Below are positions 18,726 through 50,687 of a stretch of DNA of 64,000 nt, in pieces. The stretch is taken from positions 10,572 to 74,571 of the forward strand of contig JAOABA010000022.1 of assembly GCA_026418625.1 (NCBI GenBank). Direction: 5' to 3'. Source of the stretch: Candidatus Kapaibacterium sp. GTDB taxonomy: Bacteria; Bacteroidota; Ignavibacteria; Kapaibacteriales; UBA2268. The notes beneath the pieces were generated by a model. It did not search any database, was not told the origin of the DNA, and saw only the letters and a list, made by a program, of their open reading frames with translations. Both the position numbers and the translations under genes were made by a program. Position 1 is the stretch's first letter; the number at the start of each line of letters is the position of its first letter.

Positions 18726-18800
18726 TGCACGGGTGGAAGGACTTGAACCCTCAGCCTACGGTTTTGGAGACCGCCGCTCTGCCAATTGAGCTACACCCGT
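18726..18800 (-). tRNA. tRNA-Trp (anticodon CCA).
   Basis: Hand-folded cloverleaf: acceptor ACGGGTG/CACCCGT, anticodon loop CTCCAAA, T-loop GGTTCAAGTCC. Confidence 0.8.
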
Positions 18801-18806
18801 AAAATC

Positions 18807-18881
<75 letters not shown>

Positions 18882-18885
18882 AGAG

Positions 18886-18960
18886 CGGAGCGGGAAACGG
18901 GGTTCGAACCCGCGACCCTCAGCTTGGGAAGCTGATGCTCTACCAGCTGAGCTACTCCCG
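18886..18960 (-). tRNA. tRNA-Gly (anticodon CCC).
   Basis: GCGGGAGTAGCTCAGCTGGTAGAGC...anticodon loop TTCCCAA...GGTTCGAACC. Confidence 0.8.
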
Positions 18961-18992
18961 CTTTTCAAAAACACACCATTATAAACAACTTG

Positions 18993-19065
18993 AGCGGGAG
19001 ACGAGGCTCGAACCCGCGACCCTCAGCTTGGAAGGCTGATGCTCTACCAACTGAGCTACTCCCGC
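18993..19065 (-). tRNA. tRNA-Gly (anticodon TCC).
   Basis: GCGGGAGTAGCTCAGTTGGTAGAGC...anticodon loop CTTCCAA...GGTTCGAGCC. Confidence 0.8.
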
Positions 19066-19079
19066 ATTTTTTCTCTTTG

Positions 19080-19163
19080 TGGGCAGGGAAGGATTCGAAC
19101 CTCCGTAGGGCTGAGCCCAGCAGATTTACAGTCTGCCCCGTTTAACCGCTTCGGTACCTACCC
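19080..19163 (-). tRNA. tRNA-Tyr (anticodon GTA), with a long variable arm.
   Basis: GGGTAGGTACCGAAGCGGTTAAACGGG...anticodon loop CTGTAAA...variable arm GGGCTCAGCCCTAC...GGTTCGAATCC. Confidence 0.8.
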
Positions 19164-19231: not shown

Positions 19232-21346
19232 TTAAACAGTTATTACATTTTGTATATCTACTTCGGTATCGGCTGGTATTTCTGTGTAACTAATAACGCT
19301 AACCATCGGATATTGATTATGTATCATTTTGTAAAAATATGGACGTATTTGTGCTGAACAAATTACTATTGGTAGGTATCCTGTCATTGTTATATCATCA
19401 ATTGCTTCTGAAAGACTATCGTAAATTTTCTTTATCGTTTCAGGTGATAAACCTAACGTAGGACTCGAAGTAGCTTGACTGCCAGATTGAAGTGCATTTG
19501 TCATTATTTGCTCTAATTGTGGGTCTAATGAAATTGCATGTATTACTCCGTTTTGGTCTTGATATAATTTCTTTATTGTTTCCGATAAGTTATGTCTTAC
19601 AAATTCTGTAAGAACATCTATATTTTTTGTTACTTTATAATACTCAAGCAACGCTTCCAAAATTAGTGGAAGATCCCTAATTGGTATTCCCTCCCTTAAC
19701 AAATTCTGCAAAACTTTTTGAATTGTTGCTATTGGTAATGTATCCGGATTGATTTCTTCGACTAAAGCAGGATAATCTGACTTAAGATTCTCGATTAAAT
19801 GCTTTATATCCTGTCGTGTTAGCAATTTATCTGCATTTCTTCTTATCAATTCCGTAAGATGAGTAATCAAAACAGTGGCAGCCTCGACTACCGTAAATCC
19901 CATTATTTCAGCATTTTCTCTGTCAGCGTTCGAAATCCAAGTGGCAGGCAACCCAAAAACAGGCTCTGTAACTTTTATACCCCGAATTTCACCTTCGGCG
20001 GTGCCGGAATTCATTGCCAGTAGCATATTTGGATGTAAAACATTCCTTGATATTTCAATTCCCCGAATTTTTATTACATATTCTTCGGGTTCTAATTGCA
20101 GATTATCTCTTACTCTTACCGGTGGCAATATAATTCCTAATTCTACCGCTAATTGTTTCCTGACGTTTGCTATTCTTTTGAATACATCGCCACCTTGAGT
20201 TTCATCAACTAATGCAATAAGACTGTATCCCAGTTCAATTTCAACTGGGTCAACTTTTAGCAGGTCTTCTACAGGTGCTTCTTCGGGTTTAGTAGCAACC
20301 TCTGCTTCTGTCATTTCTTTGACTAATTTTTCCTGTTCTTCTTTCTTTATGCTTTTTGTTCTGATATATGCTAATCCACCGACAATTGATGATAAAATCA
20401 GAAAAGGAATTGTTGGAAAGCCCGGTATAAAACCCATCAAAAACATAGCTGCAGAAGATATCCAAATAGCTCTCGGTTTTGCACCAAATTGTTTTCCTAA
20501 TTCAATGTCGAGTTTTTCAGATGATGATGAACGAGTAACAACCAAGCCACCTGCAACCGAAATCAAGAGCGAAGGTATCTGAGAAACTAATCCATCGCCG
20601 ATTGTCAAAATTGTGTAAGTGGAAAGAGCGTGTGTTATATCCATTCCTCTCTGTGTCATTCCGATTATAAAGCCGCCTATTATATTAATACCCGTAATTA
20701 TTAGTGCAGCTATAGCATCACCTTTAATAAATTTAGCAGCACCATCCATTGCTCCATAAAAATCTGCCTCTTTGGATAGGCTATCCCTTCTTCTTCGGGC
20801 TTCTATCTCGTCAATATAACCTGCGTTCAAGTCAGCATCAATGCTCATTTGCTTACCCGGAAGCGCATCGAGAGTAAACCTTGCAGCAACCTCAGCAATT
20901 CTGGTTGAACCTTTGATAACAACTATGAAATTTATTACAAGTAAAATTAGAAATATAATTATACCAACAACATAATTCCCACGAATAACAAATGTTCCAA
21001 AAGCATTGATTATTTCACCTGCGTGACCATCACTAAGTATTAATCTTGTTGCAGCAACGTTCAAACCTAATCTGTAAAGTGTTGCAATTAACAAAATCGT
21101 TGGAAATGAAGAAAATTCAAGTGGGCTTAACAAATATATGGCTACCACCAAAATTAATATTGACATTGCAAGATCAACCGCAATCAATAAGTCCAGCAAA
21201 AATGGAGGCAAGGGTAGCACAAGAAGTGTTAAAATTAGTAATACTCCACCCGCTAAGAGAATATCTGGACTTTTTGATAAAGAAGATAAAAAATCTCCTT
21301 TGTTTTTAGTTTCGCCAGTCAAATATAATTGTTTATTATTAGCCAA
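19232..21346 (-). CDS. flhA: Flagellar biosynthesis protein FlhA (export gate).
   Basis: 704 aa with N-terminal polytopic TM region and a C-terminal cytoplasmic domain; FHIPEP family signature. Confidence 0.92.
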   Translation of the reverse strand: MANNKQLYLTGETKNKGDFLSSLSKSPDILLAGGVLLILTLLVLPLPPFLLDLLIAVDLAMSILILVVAIYLLSPLEFSSFPTILLIATLYRLGLNVAATRLILSDGHAGEIINAFGTFVIRGNYVVGIIIFLILLVINFIVVIKGSTRIAEVAARFTLDALPGKQMSIDADLNAGYIDEIEARRRRDSLSKEADFYGAMDGAAKFIKGDAIAALIITGINIIGGFIIGMTQRGMDITHALSTYTILTIGDGLVSQIPSLLISVAGGLVVTRSSSSEKLDIELGKQFGAKPRAIWISSAAMFLMGFIPGFPTIPFLILSSIVGGLAYIRTKSIKKEEQEKLVKEMTEAEVATKPEEAPVEDLLKVDPVEIELGYSLIALVDETQGGDVFKRIANVRKQLAVELGIILPPVRVRDNLQLEPEEYVIKIRGIEISRNVLHPNMLLAMNSGTAEGEIRGIKVTEPVFGLPATWISNADRENAEIMGFTVVEAATVLITHLTELIRRNADKLLTRQDIKHLIENLKSDYPALVEEINPDTLPIATIQKVLQNLLREGIPIRDLPLILEALLEYYKVTKNIDVLTEFVRHNLSETIKKLYQDQNGVIHAISLDPQLEQIMTNALQSGSQATSSPTLGLSPETIKKIYDSLSEAIDDITMTGYLPIVICSAQIRPYFYKMIHNQYPMVSVISYTEIPADTEVDIQNVITV

Positions 21347-21372
21347 TTTCTTTTTAAAAATTATTCTTCTGT

Positions 21373-22497
21373 TTAATTATTATTTCTGTAAATATTTGTC
21401 CAATTTGCCCGATTTCTTTTGTCTTTTCGCTTTAATTGATATACATAAGCCAGAACTTGGGCAACTGCTTTAAACAAATTTTCCGGTATTTCCATATCAA
21501 CATCGGTAGAAAAGAACAAAGCCCGTGCCAACGGTGGTTGTTCCACAATTGGTATTAAATTTTCCTCAGCTATTTGCCTGATTTGTGCTGCCAGATAATC
21601 GGCTCCTTTTGCTACAACAACAGGGGCGCTCATTTTGGCTGAATCATAAGCAAGTGCAACAGCATAGTGTGTTGGGTTAGTGATTACTACATCTGCCGTT
21701 TTCACATTCTTTAACATCAGCTTTCTAATTCTCGACCTCATTATTGAGCGAAGTCTGGCTTTCACTCTTGGGTCACCCTCTGCTTGTTTGTTTTCTTCCT
21801 TAACTTCTTGTTTTGTCATTTTTAAATCTTCTTTATAGCGGTATCTTTGATAAAGCATATCAGCAACAGCTATCAAAATATAAACTGCTCCAACCTTTGC
21901 TACAACCTCTAAACTCACCGAAGCAAGAAAAGCTCCTATCTCTGATATTGGTTTCTCTATTAAATCAATTGTCTCTTGGACCTTGTCTTCGAGAATATCA
22001 TAGACAACAAACCCAAGAATAAAAATCTTAATTAGGCTTTTTGTCAATTCAAAAACTGACCGTCCTGAAAAAAATATTTTTTTTAAACCTGATAATGGAT
22101 TAAATATCCTTTTAAAATTCAACCCTTCAGTAAATTTTTTTGTGGCTATATGTAAACCAGTTTGTGATATTTCTGCGATAAGAACTATTAAAAAGATTAA
22201 AGAAACAATTGGTAGAATTAACTTTATAAAAAAAAGAATAAACTTAAAATAGTAAGCTGAAATATTCTGAGTTGTCAATTCAATGTTGGTTGATTCAATG
22301 AAAATAATTCGCATAAATTTTTGGATGTCTGCCATCATAGGAGAACCCATCAAAAAGACAATAACACCACCAACAAGCAGAACGGCTGCAGTTGTAACAT
22401 CCATACTTTTTGCTGTTTGTCCGCGAGCACGAGCTTCTCTTATACGCTTCGCACTCGCCGGTTCAGTTTTTTCCTGACCATCTTTGTTTTCTGCCAT
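21373..22497 (-). CDS. flhB: Flagellar biosynthesis protein FlhB.
   Basis: 374 aa with the NPTH autocleavage motif (VVITNPTHYAVAL). Confidence 0.9.
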   Translation of the reverse strand: MAENKDGQEKTEPASAKRIREARARGQTAKSMDVTTAAVLLVGGVIVFLMGSPMMADIQKFMRIIFIESTNIELTTQNISAYYFKFILFFIKLILPIVSLIFLIVLIAEISQTGLHIATKKFTEGLNFKRIFNPLSGLKKIFFSGRSVFELTKSLIKIFILGFVVYDILEDKVQETIDLIEKPISEIGAFLASVSLEVVAKVGAVYILIAVADMLYQRYRYKEDLKMTKQEVKEENKQAEGDPRVKARLRSIMRSRIRKLMLKNVKTADVVITNPTHYAVALAYDSAKMSAPVVVAKGADYLAAQIRQIAEENLIPIVEQPPLARALFFSTDVDMEIPENLFKAVAQVLAYVYQLKRKDKRNRANWTNIYRNNN

Positions 22498-22501
22498 CTT
22501 T

Positions 22502-23299
22502 TTAGACTTTCCCTTTTCCCAAAGACATTATTATTTTCATTGTTTCATCCTGAAATAATTCAAGTGAATTTTTTGCTACCATTATTAATATTGGTGTTGA
22601 TATTAAAAGAACAAGTAATCCAACAGCAATTTTAAGCTGAAAACTCATTACGAATATATTTGTTTGAGGAGCTATTCTTGCCAATAATGCTAAAACCAAA
22701 TTAGTTAAGAAGAGTGCAACAAGGATAGGAGCGGAAATTTTCACACCTATAATAATGACACTTGTTGCAATCTTTATCATCAAATCTTTTGCTGACAATG
22801 AGAATTCAAGTGTTGTCAATGGAATTATATCAAGACTTGCATTTAGGCTTTCAATCAAATAATGATGCCCATTAAGTAATAAAAATAAAACAAGCGTTGC
22901 CATTTCGAATAGGTTCCCAACCAAGGTTGGAGAATCATCACCCATATTAAACATAGCAGCGGCTTGGTAACCCATATCAAAATCAATAATACCACCTGCA
23001 AGTTTAGCACCCCAAAAAACTAAATTTGCAGTATAACCAATGATAAATCCAATAAACATTTCCTTCATAACAAGAAACACCAAATTCCACAGGTGAAAAT
23101 CAATCTGAGGTTGGCTTTCCCAATGAGTTGCCGTTAATGTAAATGCAAGTATGAATGATATAATAATTTTTAACTGAATATTAATAGCCATACTTTTGAA
23201 AAAAGGGGCTGAAATAAATAATCCTGTTATTCTGACAAAGATTAGCAGACCAATGATAAATTTTCCTGTTAAAAAATATATATCACTTGAATTTATCAT
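22502..23299 (-). CDS. fliR: Flagellar biosynthetic protein FliR.
   Basis: 265-aa polytopic membrane protein sitting between fliQ and flhB. Confidence 0.85.
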   Translation of the reverse strand: MINSSDIYFLTGKFIIGLLIFVRITGLFISAPFFKSMAINIQLKIIISFILAFTLTATHWESQPQIDFHLWNLVFLVMKEMFIGFIIGYTANLVFWGAKLAGGIIDFDMGYQAAAMFNMGDDSPTLVGNLFEMATLVLFLLLNGHHYLIESLNASLDIIPLTTLEFSLSAKDLMIKIATSVIIIGVKISAPILVALFLTNLVLALLARIAPQTNIFVMSFQLKIAVGLLVLLISTPILIMVAKNSLELFQDETMKIIMSLGKGKV

Positions 23300-23562
23300 T
23301 TAAGCGTGGGAATCATTTTTATGATTTCAATTGCGAAAGTTTTGATATTGCTGAGCATAAAGGGAAGAAATAATACACTCATCAAAAATACTACTAATAG
23401 CTTGGGGACAAATGTCAATGTCTGTTCCGAGATTGATGTTGCGGCTTGAAAAATTGATATTAATAAGCCTATTACCAAGGATGCTAAAAGAAGTGGTCCG
23501 CAAATAAGAATAACATAATAAAAGGCATCTCTAACTAATTGTATAACCATTTGGTCTGTCAT
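23296..23562 (-). CDS. fliQ: Flagellar biosynthetic protein FliQ.
   Basis: 88 aa, two TM helices. It overlaps fliR by 4 nt, consistent with translational coupling. Confidence 0.85.
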   Translation of the reverse strand: MTDQMVIQLVRDAFYYVILICGPLLLASLVIGLLISIFQAATSISEQTLTFVPKLLVVFLMSVLFLPFMLSNIKTFAIEIIKMIPTLK

Positions 23563-23577
23563 ATTCTTTCCTTTTTT

Positions 23578-24354
23578 TTACCTTAAAATACTTTGCATTA
23601 GGGATTCAATCACTAAATACCAGCCATCAACTAATATAAATAAGAGCAGTTTTATAGGCAATGATATCAATTGCGGAGGCAAGAGAAACATTCCGAGCGA
23701 CATCAGCACACTCGCTATCACCATATCCAGAACAAGGAATGGAACGAATAGCAAAAATCCAATCTGAAATGCCATCTTTAATTCACTTATTGAATAAGCA
23801 GGTATGATTGTCCAAATTGATACTTCACTTATATCGGCTGGTTTATCTTTTCCGCTTAACTTGATAAAAAGCCTTAAATCTTCTTCCCTTGTATGCTTAA
23901 GCATAAAATCCCTGAAGGGCTGAACTATATTATCAACAGCCTGAGTTTGATTTATTTCTTCTCTTATATAGGGTTGAAGCCCTCTTTCGTTTGCCTGATC
24001 CAGAACCGGCTGCATAACAAAAAATGTAAGAAATAGGGCTAAACCGGATAAAAGTTGATTTGGTGGTTGCGTCTGAGTCCCAAGTGCCTGCCTTAAAAAG
24101 TGAAAAACTACAATTATTCTGGTAAAGCAGGTCATCATTATCAAAATTGATGGTGCAAGAGTCAAAACGGTAATAACAGCAAGAATCTGCAAATTCAACG
24201 CTAAATCATCGCTTTTATCTGAATTGTTTACATTTATTGAAACAGTTGGTAAGGTCAGATTATTAGTTTGGGGTGCCTGAGCAAATCCTTTGCCCAGAGA
24301 CCCCAAGAATAGAACAGTAATCAAGAACAGACCTGCGATAATTCCTTTTATCAT
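23578..24354 (-). CDS. fliP: Flagellar biosynthetic protein FliP.
   Basis: 258 aa with a signal peptide and conserved FliP core (FTRIIVVFHFLRQALG). Confidence 0.88.
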   Translation of the reverse strand: MIKGIIAGLFLITVLFLGSLGKGFAQAPQTNNLTLPTVSINVNNSDKSDDLALNLQILAVITVLTLAPSILIMMTCFTRIIVVFHFLRQALGTQTQPPNQLLSGLALFLTFFVMQPVLDQANERGLQPYIREEINQTQAVDNIVQPFRDFMLKHTREEDLRLFIKLSGKDKPADISEVSIWTIIPAYSISELKMAFQIGFLLFVPFLVLDMVIASVLMSLGMFLLPPQLISLPIKLLLFILVDGWYLVIESLMQSILR

Positions 24355-40322: not shown

Positions 40323-40531
40323 TTTACTATGTCCGTCTTGGTGATTGGGTGGGGAAGTTTGTCAAAATTGAATAGCAACTACTTTCAAGTAGTGGAGAAA
40401 TAAATCATTTTTAAAGGTGCTTTACTGTAGAAACAACATCCCAGTCTGTGCAACAAAAGATGTCCTACACCTTTGAGGTGTAGGACATCTGAAAAATAGC
40501 TTTTTTGTCACTCTGAACGAAGTGAAGAGTC
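40323..40531 (+). repeat. Copy 1 of a ~205-bp hairpin-rich dispersed intergenic element (R element).
   Basis: About 90% identical to 40733-40936. It contains the 13-bp stem hairpin GATGTCCTACACC-TTTGA-GGTGTAGGACATC (40459-40489) and the hairpin ACTACTT-TCA-AGTAGT. Confidence 0.85.
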
Positions 40532-40663
40532 AATAATAATTCAATGACTTATGTGATATGGATTCTTCGCCTTCGGCTCCTAATAACTCCTTTTTACACA
40601 GCCTCGCATACAGGAATCTGAATTCATGATTTTCAACATCCTTTGCGAATTTGTTTTATCCAT

Positions 40664-40687
40664 AGAGACACAGAATTCTGTGTCTCT
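40664..40687. repeat. Perfect 24-bp palindrome between the two R-element copies.
   Basis: AGAGACACAGAA|TTCTGTGTCTCT, read directly from the sequence. Confidence 0.85.
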
Positions 40688-40732
40688 ACAGAGGATTGAT
40701 GTTTCAAATTTGCCATCAGGGCTTTACTATGT

Positions 40733-40936
40733 CCGTCTTCATGATTGGGTGGGGAAGTTTGTCAAAATTGAATAGCCACTACTTTTAAGTAGTGGAGAAA
40801 AAAATCATTTTTAAAGGTGCTTTCCGTTAGAACAGACTCCTCTTTCCGTGCAAAAAAGATGTCCTACACCTCTAAGGTGTAGGACATCTGAATAAATAGT
40901 ATTTTCGTAACACTTCACTTCGTTCAGAGTGACAAA
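40733..40936 (+). repeat. Copy 2 of the R element.
   Basis: Same order of motifs as copy 1. The hairpin at 40858-40888 keeps the identical 13-bp stem but carries a different loop (TCTAA). The terminal 21-nt segment (40913-40933) is the exact reverse complement of 40507-40527 in copy 1. Confidence 0.85.
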
Positions 40937-40970
40937 GAATCATTTTTTATACTTTTTACACAGCCTAAGA

Positions 40971-41195
40971 GGCAGGAGTTTTAGAGAATACAAAAGATTC
41001 CTGTTTGCACAGGAATGACGATGATTTTGACGGTGTCACTCCTGCGAAGGCAGGAGTTTTAAAGAACACAAAAGATTCCTGTTTGCACAGGAATGACGAT
41101 GATTTTGACGGTGTCACTCCTGCGAAGGCAGGAGTCTTAGAGTAATGAAGAGATTCCTGTCTCCACAGGAATGACAGGGAAGTTGGGGAAATCTC
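40971..41195 (+). repeat. Tandem direct repeat: 78-bp unit x 2.7, each unit with two hairpins.
   Basis: Units begin at 40971, 41049 and 41127 (GGCAGGAGTTTTAGAG...). The inner hairpin ATTCCTGT-TTGC-ACAGGAAT and the unit-junction hairpin CACTCCTGC-GAAG-GCAGGAGT(G) are both present. The third unit is diverged, with loop CTCC on a conserved stem. Confidence 0.85.
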
Positions 41196-41209
41196 TTAAT
41201 TAACAGTTA

Positions 41210-43668: not shown

Positions 43669-44040
43669 TTGGCAACAATTTTCAGAAAAAAGAAAAAAAA
43701 CGAACTAAACTACCTCGAAATGACACCTTTTGCAATTTATTCCCACGAATTTAATTCTGAGGGTAAGATTGATGTTCTCGTCCCAAGATTTTCTGATAAA
43801 GTTTTTGGCAAACTCCTCCAACCCCGATTAAAAAATAAATATATTAAAGCAAATTTAGACGAATTCGGCTCGGCTACTTGGCAACTTATCAATGGAACAA
43901 ATTCTGTAACAAGAATCGGAGAATTGCTAACCGAAAAATTTGGTGAGAAAATTCAACCTGTCTATGATAGATTAACTTTATTTTTGACACAATTATATAA
44001 TGCTGGTTTTATTTCATTTAAAGAATTAGAAAGGAAGTAA
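43669..44040 (+). CDS. PqqD-family protein (RiPP-recognition-element-like small chaperone), orphan.
   Basis: The core ANLDEFGSATWQLINGTNSVTRIGELLTEKFGE...VYDRLTLFLTQLYNAGFISF fits the PqqD pattern (LNxxgxxIWxLiDGxxtvxeIxxxLxexy...dvxxFlxxLxxxGli). Confidence 0.5.
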   Translation: MATIFRKKKKNELNYLEMTPFAIYSHEFNSEGKIDVLVPRFSDKVFGKLLQPRLKNKYIKANLDEFGSATWQLINGTNSVTRIGELLTEKFGEKIQPVYDRLTLFLTQLYNAGFISFKELERK

Positions 44041-44042
44041 CT

Positions 44043-45506
44043 ATGGGAAATGTTCTCGGTTCATTAGAGCCAAAAAGTGTTTGGAATTTTTTTGAAGAAA
44101 TCACACAAATTCCAAGACCCTCAAAAAAAGAGGAAAAAATTGCTGCTTATATCATTGATTTTGCTAAAAAGAATGGTTTTGAATATAAAACCGATAAACT
44201 TGGCAATATCGTCGTTCGCAAACCTGCTACTCCGGGTATGGAAAATAGAGTTCCTACTGTCATTCAAGGGCATCTCGATATGGTTTGCGAAAAAAACGCT
44301 GACGTTGAATTTGATTTTATGACCGACCCAATTCAACCCTATATTGATGGCGATTGGGTAAAAGCCAAAGGCACAACACTCGGTGCTGATAATGGTATCG
44401 GTCTTGCAATGGGGCTGGCAGTCCTTGCCTCCAATGATATTCCACATCCCCCAATGGAATTGCTTTGCACGCTCGACGAGGAAACCGGATTAACGGGGGC
44501 TGTTCAGCTTGGAACTGACCTTTTGAATGGCAAAATTTTAATTAATCTCGATTCAGAGGAAGATGGTGCCTTTACTATCGGTTGTGCTGGAGGAACCAAC
44601 ACCTCAGCTACATTTATGTATGATGAAGATGCAGTTCCATCTGGTTCAGTTGCTTACGAAGTTGCTATAAGAGGTTTGCAGGGTGGGCACTCTGGTATCG
44701 AAATTCACGATGGCAGAGCTAATGCAATCAAACTTCTAAACAGATTTTTATGGACAATCACTAAGTCTCTGGATGTAAGAATATCATCCATTAGAGCCGG
44801 AAGCGCTCATAATGCTATTCCAAGAGAAGCCTTTGCCATTGTTACATTATCACCTGCAATTGAAAATCAATTTAAAGAAAAAGTTGCAGAGTTTGACAGA
44901 ATCTATAAAAGCGAATGGCAATCAAAAGAGAAAAACATATCTCTTTCAGCCCAAACAACAGCCCTTCCAACAAGAATAATGTCAAAGAGCCTTCAAAAAA
45001 GATTATTGACTTCAATTTATGCAGCCCCGCATGGTCCTATGAGATATAGCCCAGACATTCCGGGCTTGGTTCAAACATCAACCAATCTGGCAATTGTTGA
45101 AACAAGACCTCTGGAAATATTTGTTTTGACAAGTCAAAGAAGCTCAGTCGAAACTGAAAAGACTGATATGGCAAATACCGTAAGGAGTGCCTTTGAACTG
45201 GGTGGTGCCGTTGTTCGACACGGTGATGGCTATCCTGCTTGGCAGCCGAACATAAATTCTCCAATTTTGAATTTAGCTGTTAAAATTTACAAGGAAATGA
45301 CTGGTAAGGAGCCAAAAGTCGAAGCAATTCACGCAGGTTTGGAATGCGGTTTGATTGGCGAAAAATACCCCGGTATGGATATGCTTTCATTTGGTCCAAC
45401 TCTTAAAGAGGTTCATTCACCAAACGAGAAGGTTCAAATATCAACCGTCCAAAACTGTTGGAATCTATTAACAAGAATATTAGCTAATATTCCAGAAAAG
45501 AGTTAA
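44043..45506 (+). CDS. pepD: Aminoacyl-histidine dipeptidase (M20C Xaa-His dipeptidase, PepD).
   Basis: LEPKSVWNFFEEITQIPRPS...GHLDMV N-terminus and the GADNGIG metal-binding motif; 487 aa. Confidence 0.85.
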   Translation: MGNVLGSLEPKSVWNFFEEITQIPRPSKKEEKIAAYIIDFAKKNGFEYKTDKLGNIVVRKPATPGMENRVPTVIQGHLDMVCEKNADVEFDFMTDPIQPYIDGDWVKAKGTTLGADNGIGLAMGLAVLASNDIPHPPMELLCTLDEETGLTGAVQLGTDLLNGKILINLDSEEDGAFTIGCAGGTNTSATFMYDEDAVPSGSVAYEVAIRGLQGGHSGIEIHDGRANAIKLLNRFLWTITKSLDVRISSIRAGSAHNAIPREAFAIVTLSPAIENQFKEKVAEFDRIYKSEWQSKEKNISLSAQTTALPTRIMSKSLQKRLLTSIYAAPHGPMRYSPDIPGLVQTSTNLAIVETRPLEIFVLTSQRSSVETEKTDMANTVRSAFELGGAVVRHGDGYPAWQPNINSPILNLAVKIYKEMTGKEPKVEAIHAGLECGLIGEKYPGMDMLSFGPTLKEVHSPNEKVQISTVQNCWNLLTRILANIPEKS

Positions 45507-47451: not shown

Positions 47452-47659
47452 GAAATTACTTTCTATTAATTTTTGAACCTCAAAAATAAGAAATCAAAAC
47501 TTAACTGCAAATAAAACTTGTTTAATAATCAAATTCGAATAAAAGTTACACAATATAAGACTAAAATAGTCGTATTTTTAAATGATTTTAATTTTAAATT
47601 TCTTTGAAAATTATTGAATATTTGATAATTTGCTATTTCGATTGAAAAATGTTTAGGAA

Positions 47660-48022
47660 GTGATTATGCTTGAAGCTTATTTGCCATTGATATTTATGTT
47701 GATATTCGGATTCGGAATAGCAGTTATTTTTCTGGTTCTATCTGAATGGCTTGGTGCAAGGAGAATTACAAAAGAAAAGCAAACAACTTATGAGAGCGGA
47801 ATGCAACCTTTCAGGACTGCAAGAGACAGATTCTCAGTTAAGTTCTATCTTGTTGCAATGAGTTTTATAGTATTTGATATCGAGGTTGTATTTCTCTATC
47901 CTTGGGCTGTTCAGTTTAAAATGCTAAGTCCCGAAGCAATTATTGCTATGTTCATCTTCATCGCAATATTGTTTGCCGGATATTTTTATGAATTAAGAAA
48001 GGGAGGAATAGAATGGCAATAA
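47660..48022 (+). CDS. nuoA: NADH-quinone oxidoreductase subunit A.
   Basis: 120 aa, three TM helices, conserved YESGM and [12 protein letters not shown]. Confidence 0.88.
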
Positions 48023-48564
48023 ATGCATTAGAAAGAGATGGTTTTCTTACCACAACGGTAGAAAACGTTATTAAATGGGCACAAAAAAATTCTTTGTGGC
48101 CTATGCCGCTGGGTATATCCTGCTGTGCCATTGAGATGATGGCATTTGCCTCGCCAAGATTCGATGTTTCAAGATTTGGTTCGGAAGTTTTCAGGATGTC
48201 CCCAAGACAATCTGATTTACTGATAGTTGCCGGAACAGTTACTTACAAAATGTCTTGGGTTGTCCGTAAAATTTATGACCAGATGCCTGATCCCAAATGG
48301 GTGATTTCAATGGGGGTCTGTGCATCAACTGGTGGTATGTTCCGCAGCTATTCAGTTGTTCAAGGGATTGATCAGTTCCTTCCGGTTGATGCTTATGTTT
48401 CGGGGTGTCCCCCAAGACCAGAGGCTCTAATCAAAGCCCTTATGCTTATTCAGGAAAAAGTTCAGAAAGCACATAAACCAGATCTATTCAATTTCGGAAA
48501 GAATGTTTCTCCAACACCTGTTCAGAAACCTTTCCCGTCAAAACTGACTGAAGTGCACGTTTAA
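48013..48564 (+). CDS. nuoB: NADH-quinone oxidoreductase subunit B (N2 cluster subunit).
   Basis: CCAIEMM, GxCxxxGG ([11 protein letters not shown]) and VSGCPPRPE Fe-S ligand motifs. Confidence 0.9.
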
Positions 48565-48705
48565 AGCATTGATAAAATCACAGAATATAAATCTTAAAGG
48601 GATGTTTGTTCTAATATTTGGATAAACATCCTTTTTTGTTATAAATTAAGACCACCTCTTCTTCTTCCCTTTTTCACATTCCTGTGACGGCTGAAATATG
48701 AAATC

Positions 48706-48960
48706 AGGCTTTAAGGGAAGTTTGTAATGATTGAATAGCCACTTCTTTTAAGTAGTGGGTAAAAAAAATATTTCCAATAATGCCTTCGGTTAGAATAGAC
48801 AACCCTTTTTGTGTAACAAAAGATGTCCCACACCTCTAAGGTGTAGGACATCTGAAAAGATAGTATTTTTGTCACTCTTCACTGAGTTCAGAGTGACAAA
48901 CAACCACTTTTTATGCTTTTTACACAGCCTCATGCACAGAAATGACTTTGAAAGTGCAAT
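48706..48960 (+). repeat. Copy 3 of the R element plus a degenerate 78-bp-type unit, in the convergent intergenic region after nuoB.
   Basis: Same motif order as 40323-40531, but it lacks the first ~28 nt. The hairpin at 48822-48852 has one mismatch in its stem. It is followed by TTTTTACACAGCCT and a degenerate unit, as at the 40.9 kb locus. Confidence 0.8.
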
Positions 48961-49041
48961 AAAAGCTGTCCGACATCTTGAAAATGTCGGACAGCTCAAC
49001 ATAATTATTTGGTTTAGAAGAACAAAACGCTTCGAGTATTT

Positions 49042-49890
49042 TTACTTCCTCCTGAAAACAGCGTCAGAGCGAAATTCGAGCTTGGAATCAATTGTAGTCA
49101 ATCGAGTATTTTTCAGTTGAATTTCATAAGGAACTTGCTCCATTTGGTTAGAACCTGCTTTTTTTGATGGCTTTGGAAATTGAACTTCTGTATTGATTGC
49201 TATAGGAACTGCCATAGGTTTCATTATATCTGCGAATTCAAGCTGAGAATCATAACCCCAAGGAATTTTCCACTCAAGCAATTTGAAAAAGAACTTTGTC
49301 TTTAAAGTCAGTTTTGCCGGACGAGGCTTAAGAACTATATATCCGCTGTCAGTGCCTTCAAGATTGAACGAAACCGGTTCGTTCAGGTAAATTTGAACTT
49401 CAGGTGAAATAGAAGCAGGAACGCCGATATATTTACCTGAAGCGCTGATAGCTCCCTTCCCCTCTATTTCAATTTTTCCCTCAATAATATTCTTATCAAA
49501 TTTAGAAAAATTTATTGCTTTGATATTAACCGAAAAACTTCCAGTATCAATATTGATGTAGTTTGTGTAGTTGATACCTAAAACCGATTTATCCTCTTTA
49601 ACCACATTTTTCGATTGCCGGAAAATAATCTTAATATCATCTTCTCTTCTATTGGAAAGAGCTTTCAATATAGTATTTAAAGGATTAACACTTAAACGAA
49701 GGATAAAATCATTCCCTGAGGGTAGATTTTTTGTTCTGTCATCTATGTTTCTATCAGCTAAATTGATTTGAGGTTGATAAAAATCAATCAATTTTTGTGA
49801 TTGTTCAATTGTCGGCAAGTCAATACTTTTACATCCAAACAAAGTGATAATAATTGATATGAATATAAAAATTAAACTGTAACTTTTCAT
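49042..49890 (-). CDS. Hypothetical lipoprotein.
   Basis: Signal peptide with lipobox LFGC. No recognisable domain. Confidence 0.45.
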   Translation of the reverse strand: MKSYSLIFIFISIIITLFGCKSIDLPTIEQSQKLIDFYQPQINLADRNIDDRTKNLPSGNDFILRLSVNPLNTILKALSNRREDDIKIIFRQSKNVVKEDKSVLGINYTNYINIDTGSFSVNIKAINFSKFDKNIIEGKIEIEGKGAISASGKYIGVPASISPEVQIYLNEPVSFNLEGTDSGYIVLKPRPAKLTLKTKFFFKLLEWKIPWGYDSQLEFADIMKPMAVPIAINTEVQFPKPSKKAGSNQMEQVPYEIQLKNTRLTTIDSKLEFRSDAVFRRK

Positions 49891-50687
49891 TTGACCTCCA
49901 CTTTATCAATGCTCATTGCAACAAAGACCTTACCTCTGAATATCAATATTTCATTGAGTTTCAAGCTGTATTTAATCGGGTAATCATTATACGAAACAAG
50001 CATATTGACTTTGTCCTTGATATTTATGTTGGCTTTTTCCAAAAGGAAATCATTGGTGAAAGACAATGGAATTTTAAGCGGTGGAAAGCTTTTGCTGAGG
50101 TTTGCCAGATTAATTTTAATTAGATTTTCGATTATTTCATCTGTTCCACCCAATAAACCTTTTGCATCGGCTATTGGAGAAATGTTAAACGGTTCGAGAT
50201 TCATTTCAAGTTCATTTTTGAGCATTTTGAACGTTACAATGCAGTCCATCGAAAGAGAAACATCAACATTATAACTGTTATTATGAGCCAAAAGAGTGAG
50301 CGTTGCAATTGCCGAGCCATTGAACAGCGTAAGCTTTGTCTTCAGAATCTTATAGCTTGTGGCAGGGTCGAGCCAACCCTCCGAAGAATCATACTGCATA
50401 GCTATCTTGTTAAGGAAAGCCTCAGATAAATAAAAGCTTATGTCAGCATTTTCTGGAGGGTTACCTTCATTAAGACGCTTTGCAAGGCTTGTAGCAGCTA
50501 AGAATTTTACTTCCATCATTTTAGCTTCCCTTGCCTTATCGAATTGGACAGGGTCAATATCAGCACCTGCAATTTTTTTAATAATGCCGCAGGAGGTTAG
50601 CAAAATGGCTAAAGATATAGTAAATATTATAAATTTCATAATCAAAAGTATTATTTTTAAAGGAACAAAATTAATAATTTCAATCAA
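49887..50687 (-). CDS. Hypothetical lipoprotein, translationally coupled to the downstream lipoprotein gene.
   Basis: Lipobox LLTSC. There is a 4-nt overlap with the next gene. Confidence 0.45.
   Translation of the reverse strand: MIEIINFVPLKIILLIMKFIIFTISLAILLTSCGIIKKIAGADIDPVQFDKAREAKMMEVKFLAATSLAKRLNEGNPPENADISFYLSEAFLNKIAMQYDSSEGWLDPATSYKILKTKLTLFNGSAIATLTLLAHNNSYNVDVSLSMDCIVTFKMLKNELEMNLEPFNISPIADAKGLLGGTDEIIENLIKINLANLSKSFPPLKIPLSFTNDFLLEKANINIKDKVNMLVSYNDYPIKYSLKLNEILIFRGKVFVAMSIDKVEVK

Follow-up and report, generated by a model that had tools for sequence, protein, structure and literature searches.

The nuoA-nuoB pair of a Candidatus Kapaibacterium contig, very probably a complete unit of a split complex I

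The nuoA and nuoB genes and their surroundings

The window, by which we mean the whole 64-kb stretch of DNA that was analyzed, carries two adjacent genes for complex I subunits on its plus strand. The first, nuoA (47666..48022), encodes the 118-aa membrane subunit A/ND3 (Pfam PF00507), and the second, nuoB (48013..48564), encodes the 183-aa subunit that holds [4Fe-4S] cluster N2 (Pfam PF01058). The nuoB ATG at 48013 precedes the nuoA TAA at 48020-48022, creating the 10-nt overlap ATGGCAATAA that an earlier, sequence-only reading of this DNA had correctly described, and the overlap sequence ATGG(G/C)A(T/A)TA(A/G) was kept in most of the relatives compared. A Shine-Dalgarno sequence for nuoB (GGGAGG, 48001-48006) lies within nuoA, 6 nt 5′ of the nuoB ATG, and translation of nuoB is likely coupled to that of nuoA through the overlap. 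The conserved start of nuoA is the ATG at 47666, while a GTG at 47660 was not conserved in congeners. Existing gene calls for nuoA were divided between a 118-aa protein, in three relatives, and a 124-aa protein with an upstream start, in three others.

In the case of NuoA, PF00507 (Oxidored_q4) was matched over profile positions 2-99 of 99 (E=1e-34), comprising the full-length domain, and the best match among solved structures was the NuoA chain 8qby_A (E=6e-27), with NuoA/ND3 chains matched over the full length of the protein. NuoB matched PF01058 (Oxidored_q6; E=5e-28), and its best solved-structure match was Nqo6 of T. thermophilus (213 bits, E=1.7e-62), whereas the hydrogenase small subunits MbhJ and HycG scored 98 and 87 bits, respectively. 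All four cysteines that bind N2 were present (C37, C38, C103, and C132), including the tandem CC, and their contexts (CCxxE, GxCA, and GCPPRP) aligned with the Nqo6 motifs CCAIEM, GxCA, and GCPPRPE. Additionally, a protein identical to the NuoB of the window has been deposited from a Candidatus Kapabacteria bacterium (MCX7735937.1).

Neither nuoC nor nuoD follows nuoB, as the sequence-only reading had also noted. Moreover, when all 13 Nuo proteins of the annotated E. coli K-12 operon were used as tblastn queries, A and B alone were recovered from the 64-kb window, and the outcome was the same when NuoC, NuoD, NuoE, NuoF, NuoG, and NuoH sequences from relatives were added. This lack of partner genes in 64 kb is what might be seen if nuoAB were the decaying relic of a lost complex I, but the two genes show the opposite of decay. 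Between the window and the contig of a strain of the same species (L001; nuoB 91% identical in DNA, protein identical), nuoB differed at 49 nt, all of them synonymous, with 0 amino-acid differences; the corresponding values were 24 nt and 0 amino acids against strain L002, and 88 nt and 4 amino acids against congener L087. Likewise, nuoA differed at 8 nt and 0 amino acids from L002, and at 39 nt and 2 amino acids from L088. These sequence comparisons show nuoA and nuoB to be canonical complex I genes that are intact and subject to strong purifying selection. The domains are of full length, all cluster ligands are kept, and the strong purifying selection on nuoB rules out a decaying relic, to which we attach almost no credence.

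The other large ORFs of the window are ordinary chromosomal genes, identified by Pfam as rpoB/C, nusG, flhA/flhB/fliR/fliP, pheT, purC, ispD, lgt, nadK, asd, and a gene for an HtrA-like protease. The flagellar export apparatus genes flhA, flhB, fliR, and fliP form a cluster on the minus strand (19232-24354), which adjoins five tRNA genes (18728-19163) and a region containing nusG, ORFs of ribosomal protein size, rpoB, and rpoC. At 43669-45506, a PqqD-family ORF (123 aa) is located 2 nt upstream of an M20 peptidase gene; this PqqD/M20 flank was not common to congeners, and synteny with L121 stopped at the far end of lgt (45730). When the flanking genes (pqqD-like, M20 peptidase, lipoproteins, asd, and htrA-like) were compared with those of 82 GTDB loci, the sole match was L001, such that the neighbors of nuoAB are not conserved past the species or genus level.

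Leader, terminator, and the spacer beyond nuoB

Immediately 5′ of nuoA is a conserved block (47601..47660, plus strand) that likely comprises a promoter and 5′ leader. Within it, TTTG (47603-47606) is followed after 19 nt by TAATTTG (47626-47632), an arrangement that we take to resemble the −33/−7 promoter type of Bacteroidota, and an AGGAAG Shine-Dalgarno sequence is positioned just 5′ of the nuoA ATG. The 60-nt leader was nearly invariant among the window, L121, and L087, while the 2.8-kb block spanning lgt, nadK, and nuoAB was only ~81% identical, and the leader block could be a putative promoter or regulatory leader. A scan for the sigma-70 consensus returned no enrichment over shuffled sequences and was not used as evidence.

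At the other end of the pair, an intrinsic terminator is predicted at 48596..48635 (plus strand), formed by a 16-bp stem and an 8-nt loop and then TTTTTTGTT. The hairpin begins 32 nt after the nuoB stop codon according to the terminator scan and appeared in the MFE fold as well as in the centroid fold, and this terminator was kept in strains L001 and L002. A hairpin and T-run were found in the same place after nuoB in L003, L006, L009, L084, L087, and L121, with unrelated stems, reading GGCTGTCTCG... in L121 and GGAATTCCCA... in L087, and being GC-rich in L003, L006, L009, and L084. Conservation of the structure despite unrelated sequences speaks for a genuine stop of transcription after nuoB. 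With a predicted promoter region and a predicted terminator of its own, nuoAB would form a small operon.

The spacer between nuoB and the next gene is 477 nt long (48565-49041). The nuoB terminator comes first in it, then a middle cassette, and last the terminator hairpin of a convergent lipoprotein operon (48964..48996, minus strand), which was recognized as an inverted repeat by self-BLAST and by folding, with its T-run on the minus strand. The sequence-only reading had assigned the entire 480 bp after nuoB to a copy of a repeat element, R. Such a copy is present (~48686..48935, plus strand), occupying ~250 nt mid-spacer inside a strain-variable cassette (48665-48959), but the remainder of the spacer is other sequence, including the two terminator hairpins. 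A nuoC pseudogene in the spacer was considered and rejected, as tblastn gave no similarity and there is no room for it. Past the spacer are, as that reading had it, two convergent putative lipoprotein genes (49042-49890 and 49887-50687, minus strand), which have the lipoboxes LFGC and LTSC, matched no Pfam family, and lie outside the nuo unit. The flank at 48960-49046 was homologous in L001, and the first lipoprotein gene was 97% identical there, coming right after the same spacer flanks.

Aligned over 216 nt, the spacer copy of R matched 40752-40966 at 84% identity, and its identity to 40352-40530 was 77%. It contains a degenerate tail of a T9SS sorting domain (GKFVMIE, then a stop; 48715-48738) and three hairpins (48739-48758, 48821-48853, and 48871-48897). 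In the upstream region, R is composite (40323-41203), with a 400-nt tandem duplication (40323-40966) and then three 78-nt tandem units (40970-41203), each of which carries the hairpin GATTCCTGT..ACAGGAATG. A stop-to-stop ORF in this region of R (40587-40775) preserves, as a pseudogene fragment, part of a T9SS C-terminal sorting domain (Por_Secre_tail, E=7e-7, 29.8 bits), of which the other R copies retain only the last 7-17 codons. The site 3′ of nuoB may hold the debris of T9SS cargo genes.

Between strains, the occupant of the spacer varied. The L001 contig (675-897) shares both terminator flanks with the 48665-48959 region of the window and has in place of R a different middle cassette, akin to the 78-nt repeats (40970-41203), while L002 carries R. 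Hence, R came or was exchanged at the strain level, and such an arrival implies that it postdates the isolation of nuoAB by a long time. Judging from these exchanges, the space between the two convergent terminators seems to be a site where such repeats land or are exchanged. R was absent from the 83 loci screened, and from congeners L086, L087, and L121.

Arrangement of nuo genes in relatives

Relatives were collected by a scan of GTDB with NuoB, and their loci were typed by tblastn with E. coli references. In L004, L006, L008, L009, and L015, nuoAB stood alone, with 5-10 kb of downstream sequence that lacked nuoC-N. L005 had nuoAB together with a convergent nuoD 1.6 kb away, as a separate unit, and in L013 a separate nuoCD pair was located 1.8 kb from nuoAB, behind genes on the opposite strand. 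Among the Ignavibacteriota/Kapaibacterium loci, contiguous nuoABCD(EF) clusters were found in L007, L010-L012, L014, L016, and L017; for three of these (L010, L012, and L017), to which the NuoB of the window was 65-70% identical, nuoCDEF came directly 3′ of nuoB. Overall, nuoABCDEF was present in L010, L012, L017, and L018 (NuoB identity 59-70%), and clusters comprising A-H in L019 and L021-L023. Based on gene content, the nuoAB of the window can be assigned to the 14-subunit (NuoEFG-linked) type, in that the clusters of its nearest homologues include nuoE and nuoF; the compared set offered no 11-subunit-type cluster as a contrast. NuoB-like genes without detectable nuoA or nuoC/D neighbors, or accompanied only by a nuoI-like gene, were also encountered in many loci of Acidobacteriota, Bacteroidota, and other phyla (L026, L031, L038, L043, L056, L058, L061, and L067; L030, L032, L044, L049, L052, and L076).

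In a neighbor-joining tree of NuoB (~160 residues, computed without support values), the window grouped with L003, L004, L005, and L006, and this group was adjoined by L009 and L013, all of these loci being split. Searching a protein database extended the comparison to closer relatives. Congeners with 98% identical NuoB (L086-L089, L121, and L122) kept lgt and nadK next to nuoAB, and their DNA homology to the window ended exactly at the nuoB stop codon, where T9SS lectin-like genes came next. In L090-L093 (NuoB 89% identity), a YfhO gene preceded nuoAB, and rpiB followed it. In a complete 4.49-Mb relative (OW818654.1), nuoAB was at 3.139 Mb with a convergent gene for cytochrome c peroxidase after it, and nuoD stood alone at 3.767 Mb (L085, 3757251-3778525), 628 kb from nuoAB; NuoC of this genome was not among the best 120 matches to the NuoC of L013, and only nuoAB and nuoD were located there. 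Another relative, of 3.58 Mb (L120), had nuoABCD, after which the cluster stopped. Of the contigs returned by a metagenome scan with NuoD, only three were from the low-GC lineage and the others came from high-GC organisms with ordinary A-N operons; nuoD was isolated in the low-GC metagenome contigs L095 and L096. Genes for NuoD lacking an adjacent nuoC were thus seen in the low-GC, Kapaibacterium-type L085 (OW818654.1), L005, L095, and L096. Isolated nuoAB was found in L004, L006, L008, L009, L015, L084, L086-L093, and L121-L122, and R in none of those tested. As far as the sampled loci indicate, isolated nuoAB is the rule in the NuoB clade of the window (Kapabacteria/Kapaibacterium MAGs), with neighbors that vary by lineage.

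These arrangements bear on the proposal, made in the sequence-only reading, that the repeat marks a rearrangement breakpoint. By sequence comparison, synteny between congeners truly breaks at the 3′ flank of nuoB, in that T9SS lectin genes occupy it in L086-L089 and L121 versus lipoprotein genes in the window, and to this limited extent the word breakpoint is apt; however, the break never involved nuoC-N, and the nuo genes were not severed there, as homology to species with ~81% DNA identity ends exactly at the nuoB stop codon, where those species have no repeat. For R, or recombination between R copies, to have severed an ancestral nuoABCD... after nuoB, with the rest moved or deleted, one can point to the R copy in the spacer 3′ of nuoB, to the T9SS sorting-domain fragment that R carries, and to two more copies 8 kb upstream, which are recombination substrates in principle. 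Yet the operon ends at nuoB in R-less congeners, in more distant Kapaibacterium loci, and in one complete genome, and the nuoB terminator precedes R and recurs in L001, which lacks R at this site. Additionally, R and its paralogue share ~84% identity in non-coding DNA, and R is in L002 but replaced in L001, as expected from a strain-level arrival, and tblastn detected no nuoC remnant in the spacer. We therefore regard severing by R as very improbable.

A second proposal was that NuoAB constitutes a self-sufficient module. In complex I structures, NuoB requires NuoD to build the quinone site, and genomes with isolated nuoAB do encode NuoD of the matching clade, within 2 kb of nuoAB in L005 and L013. 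NuoB is, moreover, the standard N2-cluster subunit, with far greater similarity to its complex I counterparts than to the small subunits of hydrogenases, as its score against Nqo6 and its four N2 cysteines attest, and in the nearest NuoB relatives with longer clusters (L010, L012, and L017) nuoCDEF lie directly downstream. These observations speak against a free-standing module, and equally against a spare pair that plugs into a separate 11-subunit complex, in either case without dedicated partners of the 14-subunit type. Such readings could draw on the movement of nuoAB as a unit between genomic contexts with its conserved regulatory region, on OW818654.1, in which nuoC was neither beside nuoD nor among the best 120 NuoC matches, and on the two complex I gene sets that have been reported in Ignavibacteria (PMC3362086). 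On balance, we consider them quite unlikely.

A probable split complex I and its known counterparts

Taken together, the sequence data make it very probable that nuoA-nuoB is a complete two-gene unit of an ordinary split complex I rather than the stump of an operon, the whereabouts of its partners at other loci being inferred from relatives. The notion that the nuo operon is truncated after nuoB could not be sustained in the face of the conserved leader, the terminator of its own, the intact genes, and the same isolated pair in relatives. The sequence-only reading had itself entertained a split operon with the rest elsewhere, and this is the possibility that gained support: isolated nuoAB was clade-wide, nuoD was 628 kb off in OW818654.1, and scattered sets have been published. 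It had also recommended comparing synteny with relatives, holding that a split conserved in them without any repeat would tell against its suspicion of a truncation, and this is how the relatives proved to be arranged.

In this organism, then, NuoA and NuoB would be made from the small nuoAB operon and would join NuoC, NuoD, NuoH, and other subunits in the membrane, the latter being encoded at other loci, as in relatives. The product would be a 14-subunit-type NADH:quinone oxidoreductase like those reported from Ignavibacterium, Melioribacter, and Ca. Thermonerobacter. The division of the genes after nuoB would be old, having arisen before the divergence of the lineages that share isolated nuoAB. 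R, comprising a T9SS gene-tail fragment and hairpin modules, would have entered the gap between the terminators recently, at the strain level, and would have had no role in the split, being a recent passenger in this terminator-to-terminator gap.

Beyond annotation, the finding has little consequence. Where a contig from Kapabacteria or Ignavibacteria has nuoAB on its own, this is no reason to record complex I as truncated or incomplete, or to assume a repeat-driven rearrangement, and pathway-completeness tools that require the nuo genes to be contiguous will underestimate complex I in these groups. A more far-reaching possibility is that the 14-subunit complex I of Kapaibacterium has been divided into tiny units, each under its own control (nuoAB, a solitary nuoD, and a nuoC that is elsewhere or absent), with the almost invariant leader reflecting separate regulation. 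We consider this unlikely; if true, one NuoAB pair could serve two complex I isoforms, or the quinone module could be assembled on demand.

The split-operon arrangement is already documented for this bacterial group, and the window is one more instance of it. Specifically, Ignavibacterium album (PMC3362086), Melioribacter roseus (PMC3534657), and Ca. Thermonerobacter thiotrophicus (PMC6338057), which belong to the same group, each have a 14-subunit nuo set that is scattered over several loci, alongside a compact 11-subunit operon. More broadly, according to a survey of prokaryotic genomes, split and single-cluster arrangements occur side by side in most of its complex I clades (bioRxiv 10.1101/2025.03.13.643058). 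In comparison with the scattered sets of the three named organisms, the Kapaibacterium-type clade has nuoAB alone and nuoD or nuoCD separate, while other members keep ABCD (L120) or ABCDEF (L010, L017). The minor twist, at least among the loci compared here, is that the Kapaibacterium-type clade cuts its first nuo cluster down to nuoAB.

With respect to the canonical nuoA-N operon of E. coli and Thermus thermophilus, the pair has A and then B in the same order, from the same families, and with the same N2 ligands; in the canonical operon, however, nuoC and nuoD follow directly, whereas in the window a transcription stop is predicted 32-80 nt after nuoB. In cyanobacteria and chloroplasts, ndhC-ndhK-ndhJ, the homologues of nuoA, nuoB, and nuoC, form a small operon apart from the other NDH-1 genes. 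The window resembles this arrangement in that the A and B homologues would be in a separate small operon, and NdhK and NdhC were among the solved-structure matches. The cyanobacterial and chloroplast operon differs in that it includes the NuoC homologue and serves a photosynthetic NDH-1 without NuoEFG, and the NuoB of the window was much nearer to the respiratory Nqo6 (213 bits) than to NdhK (~160 bits).
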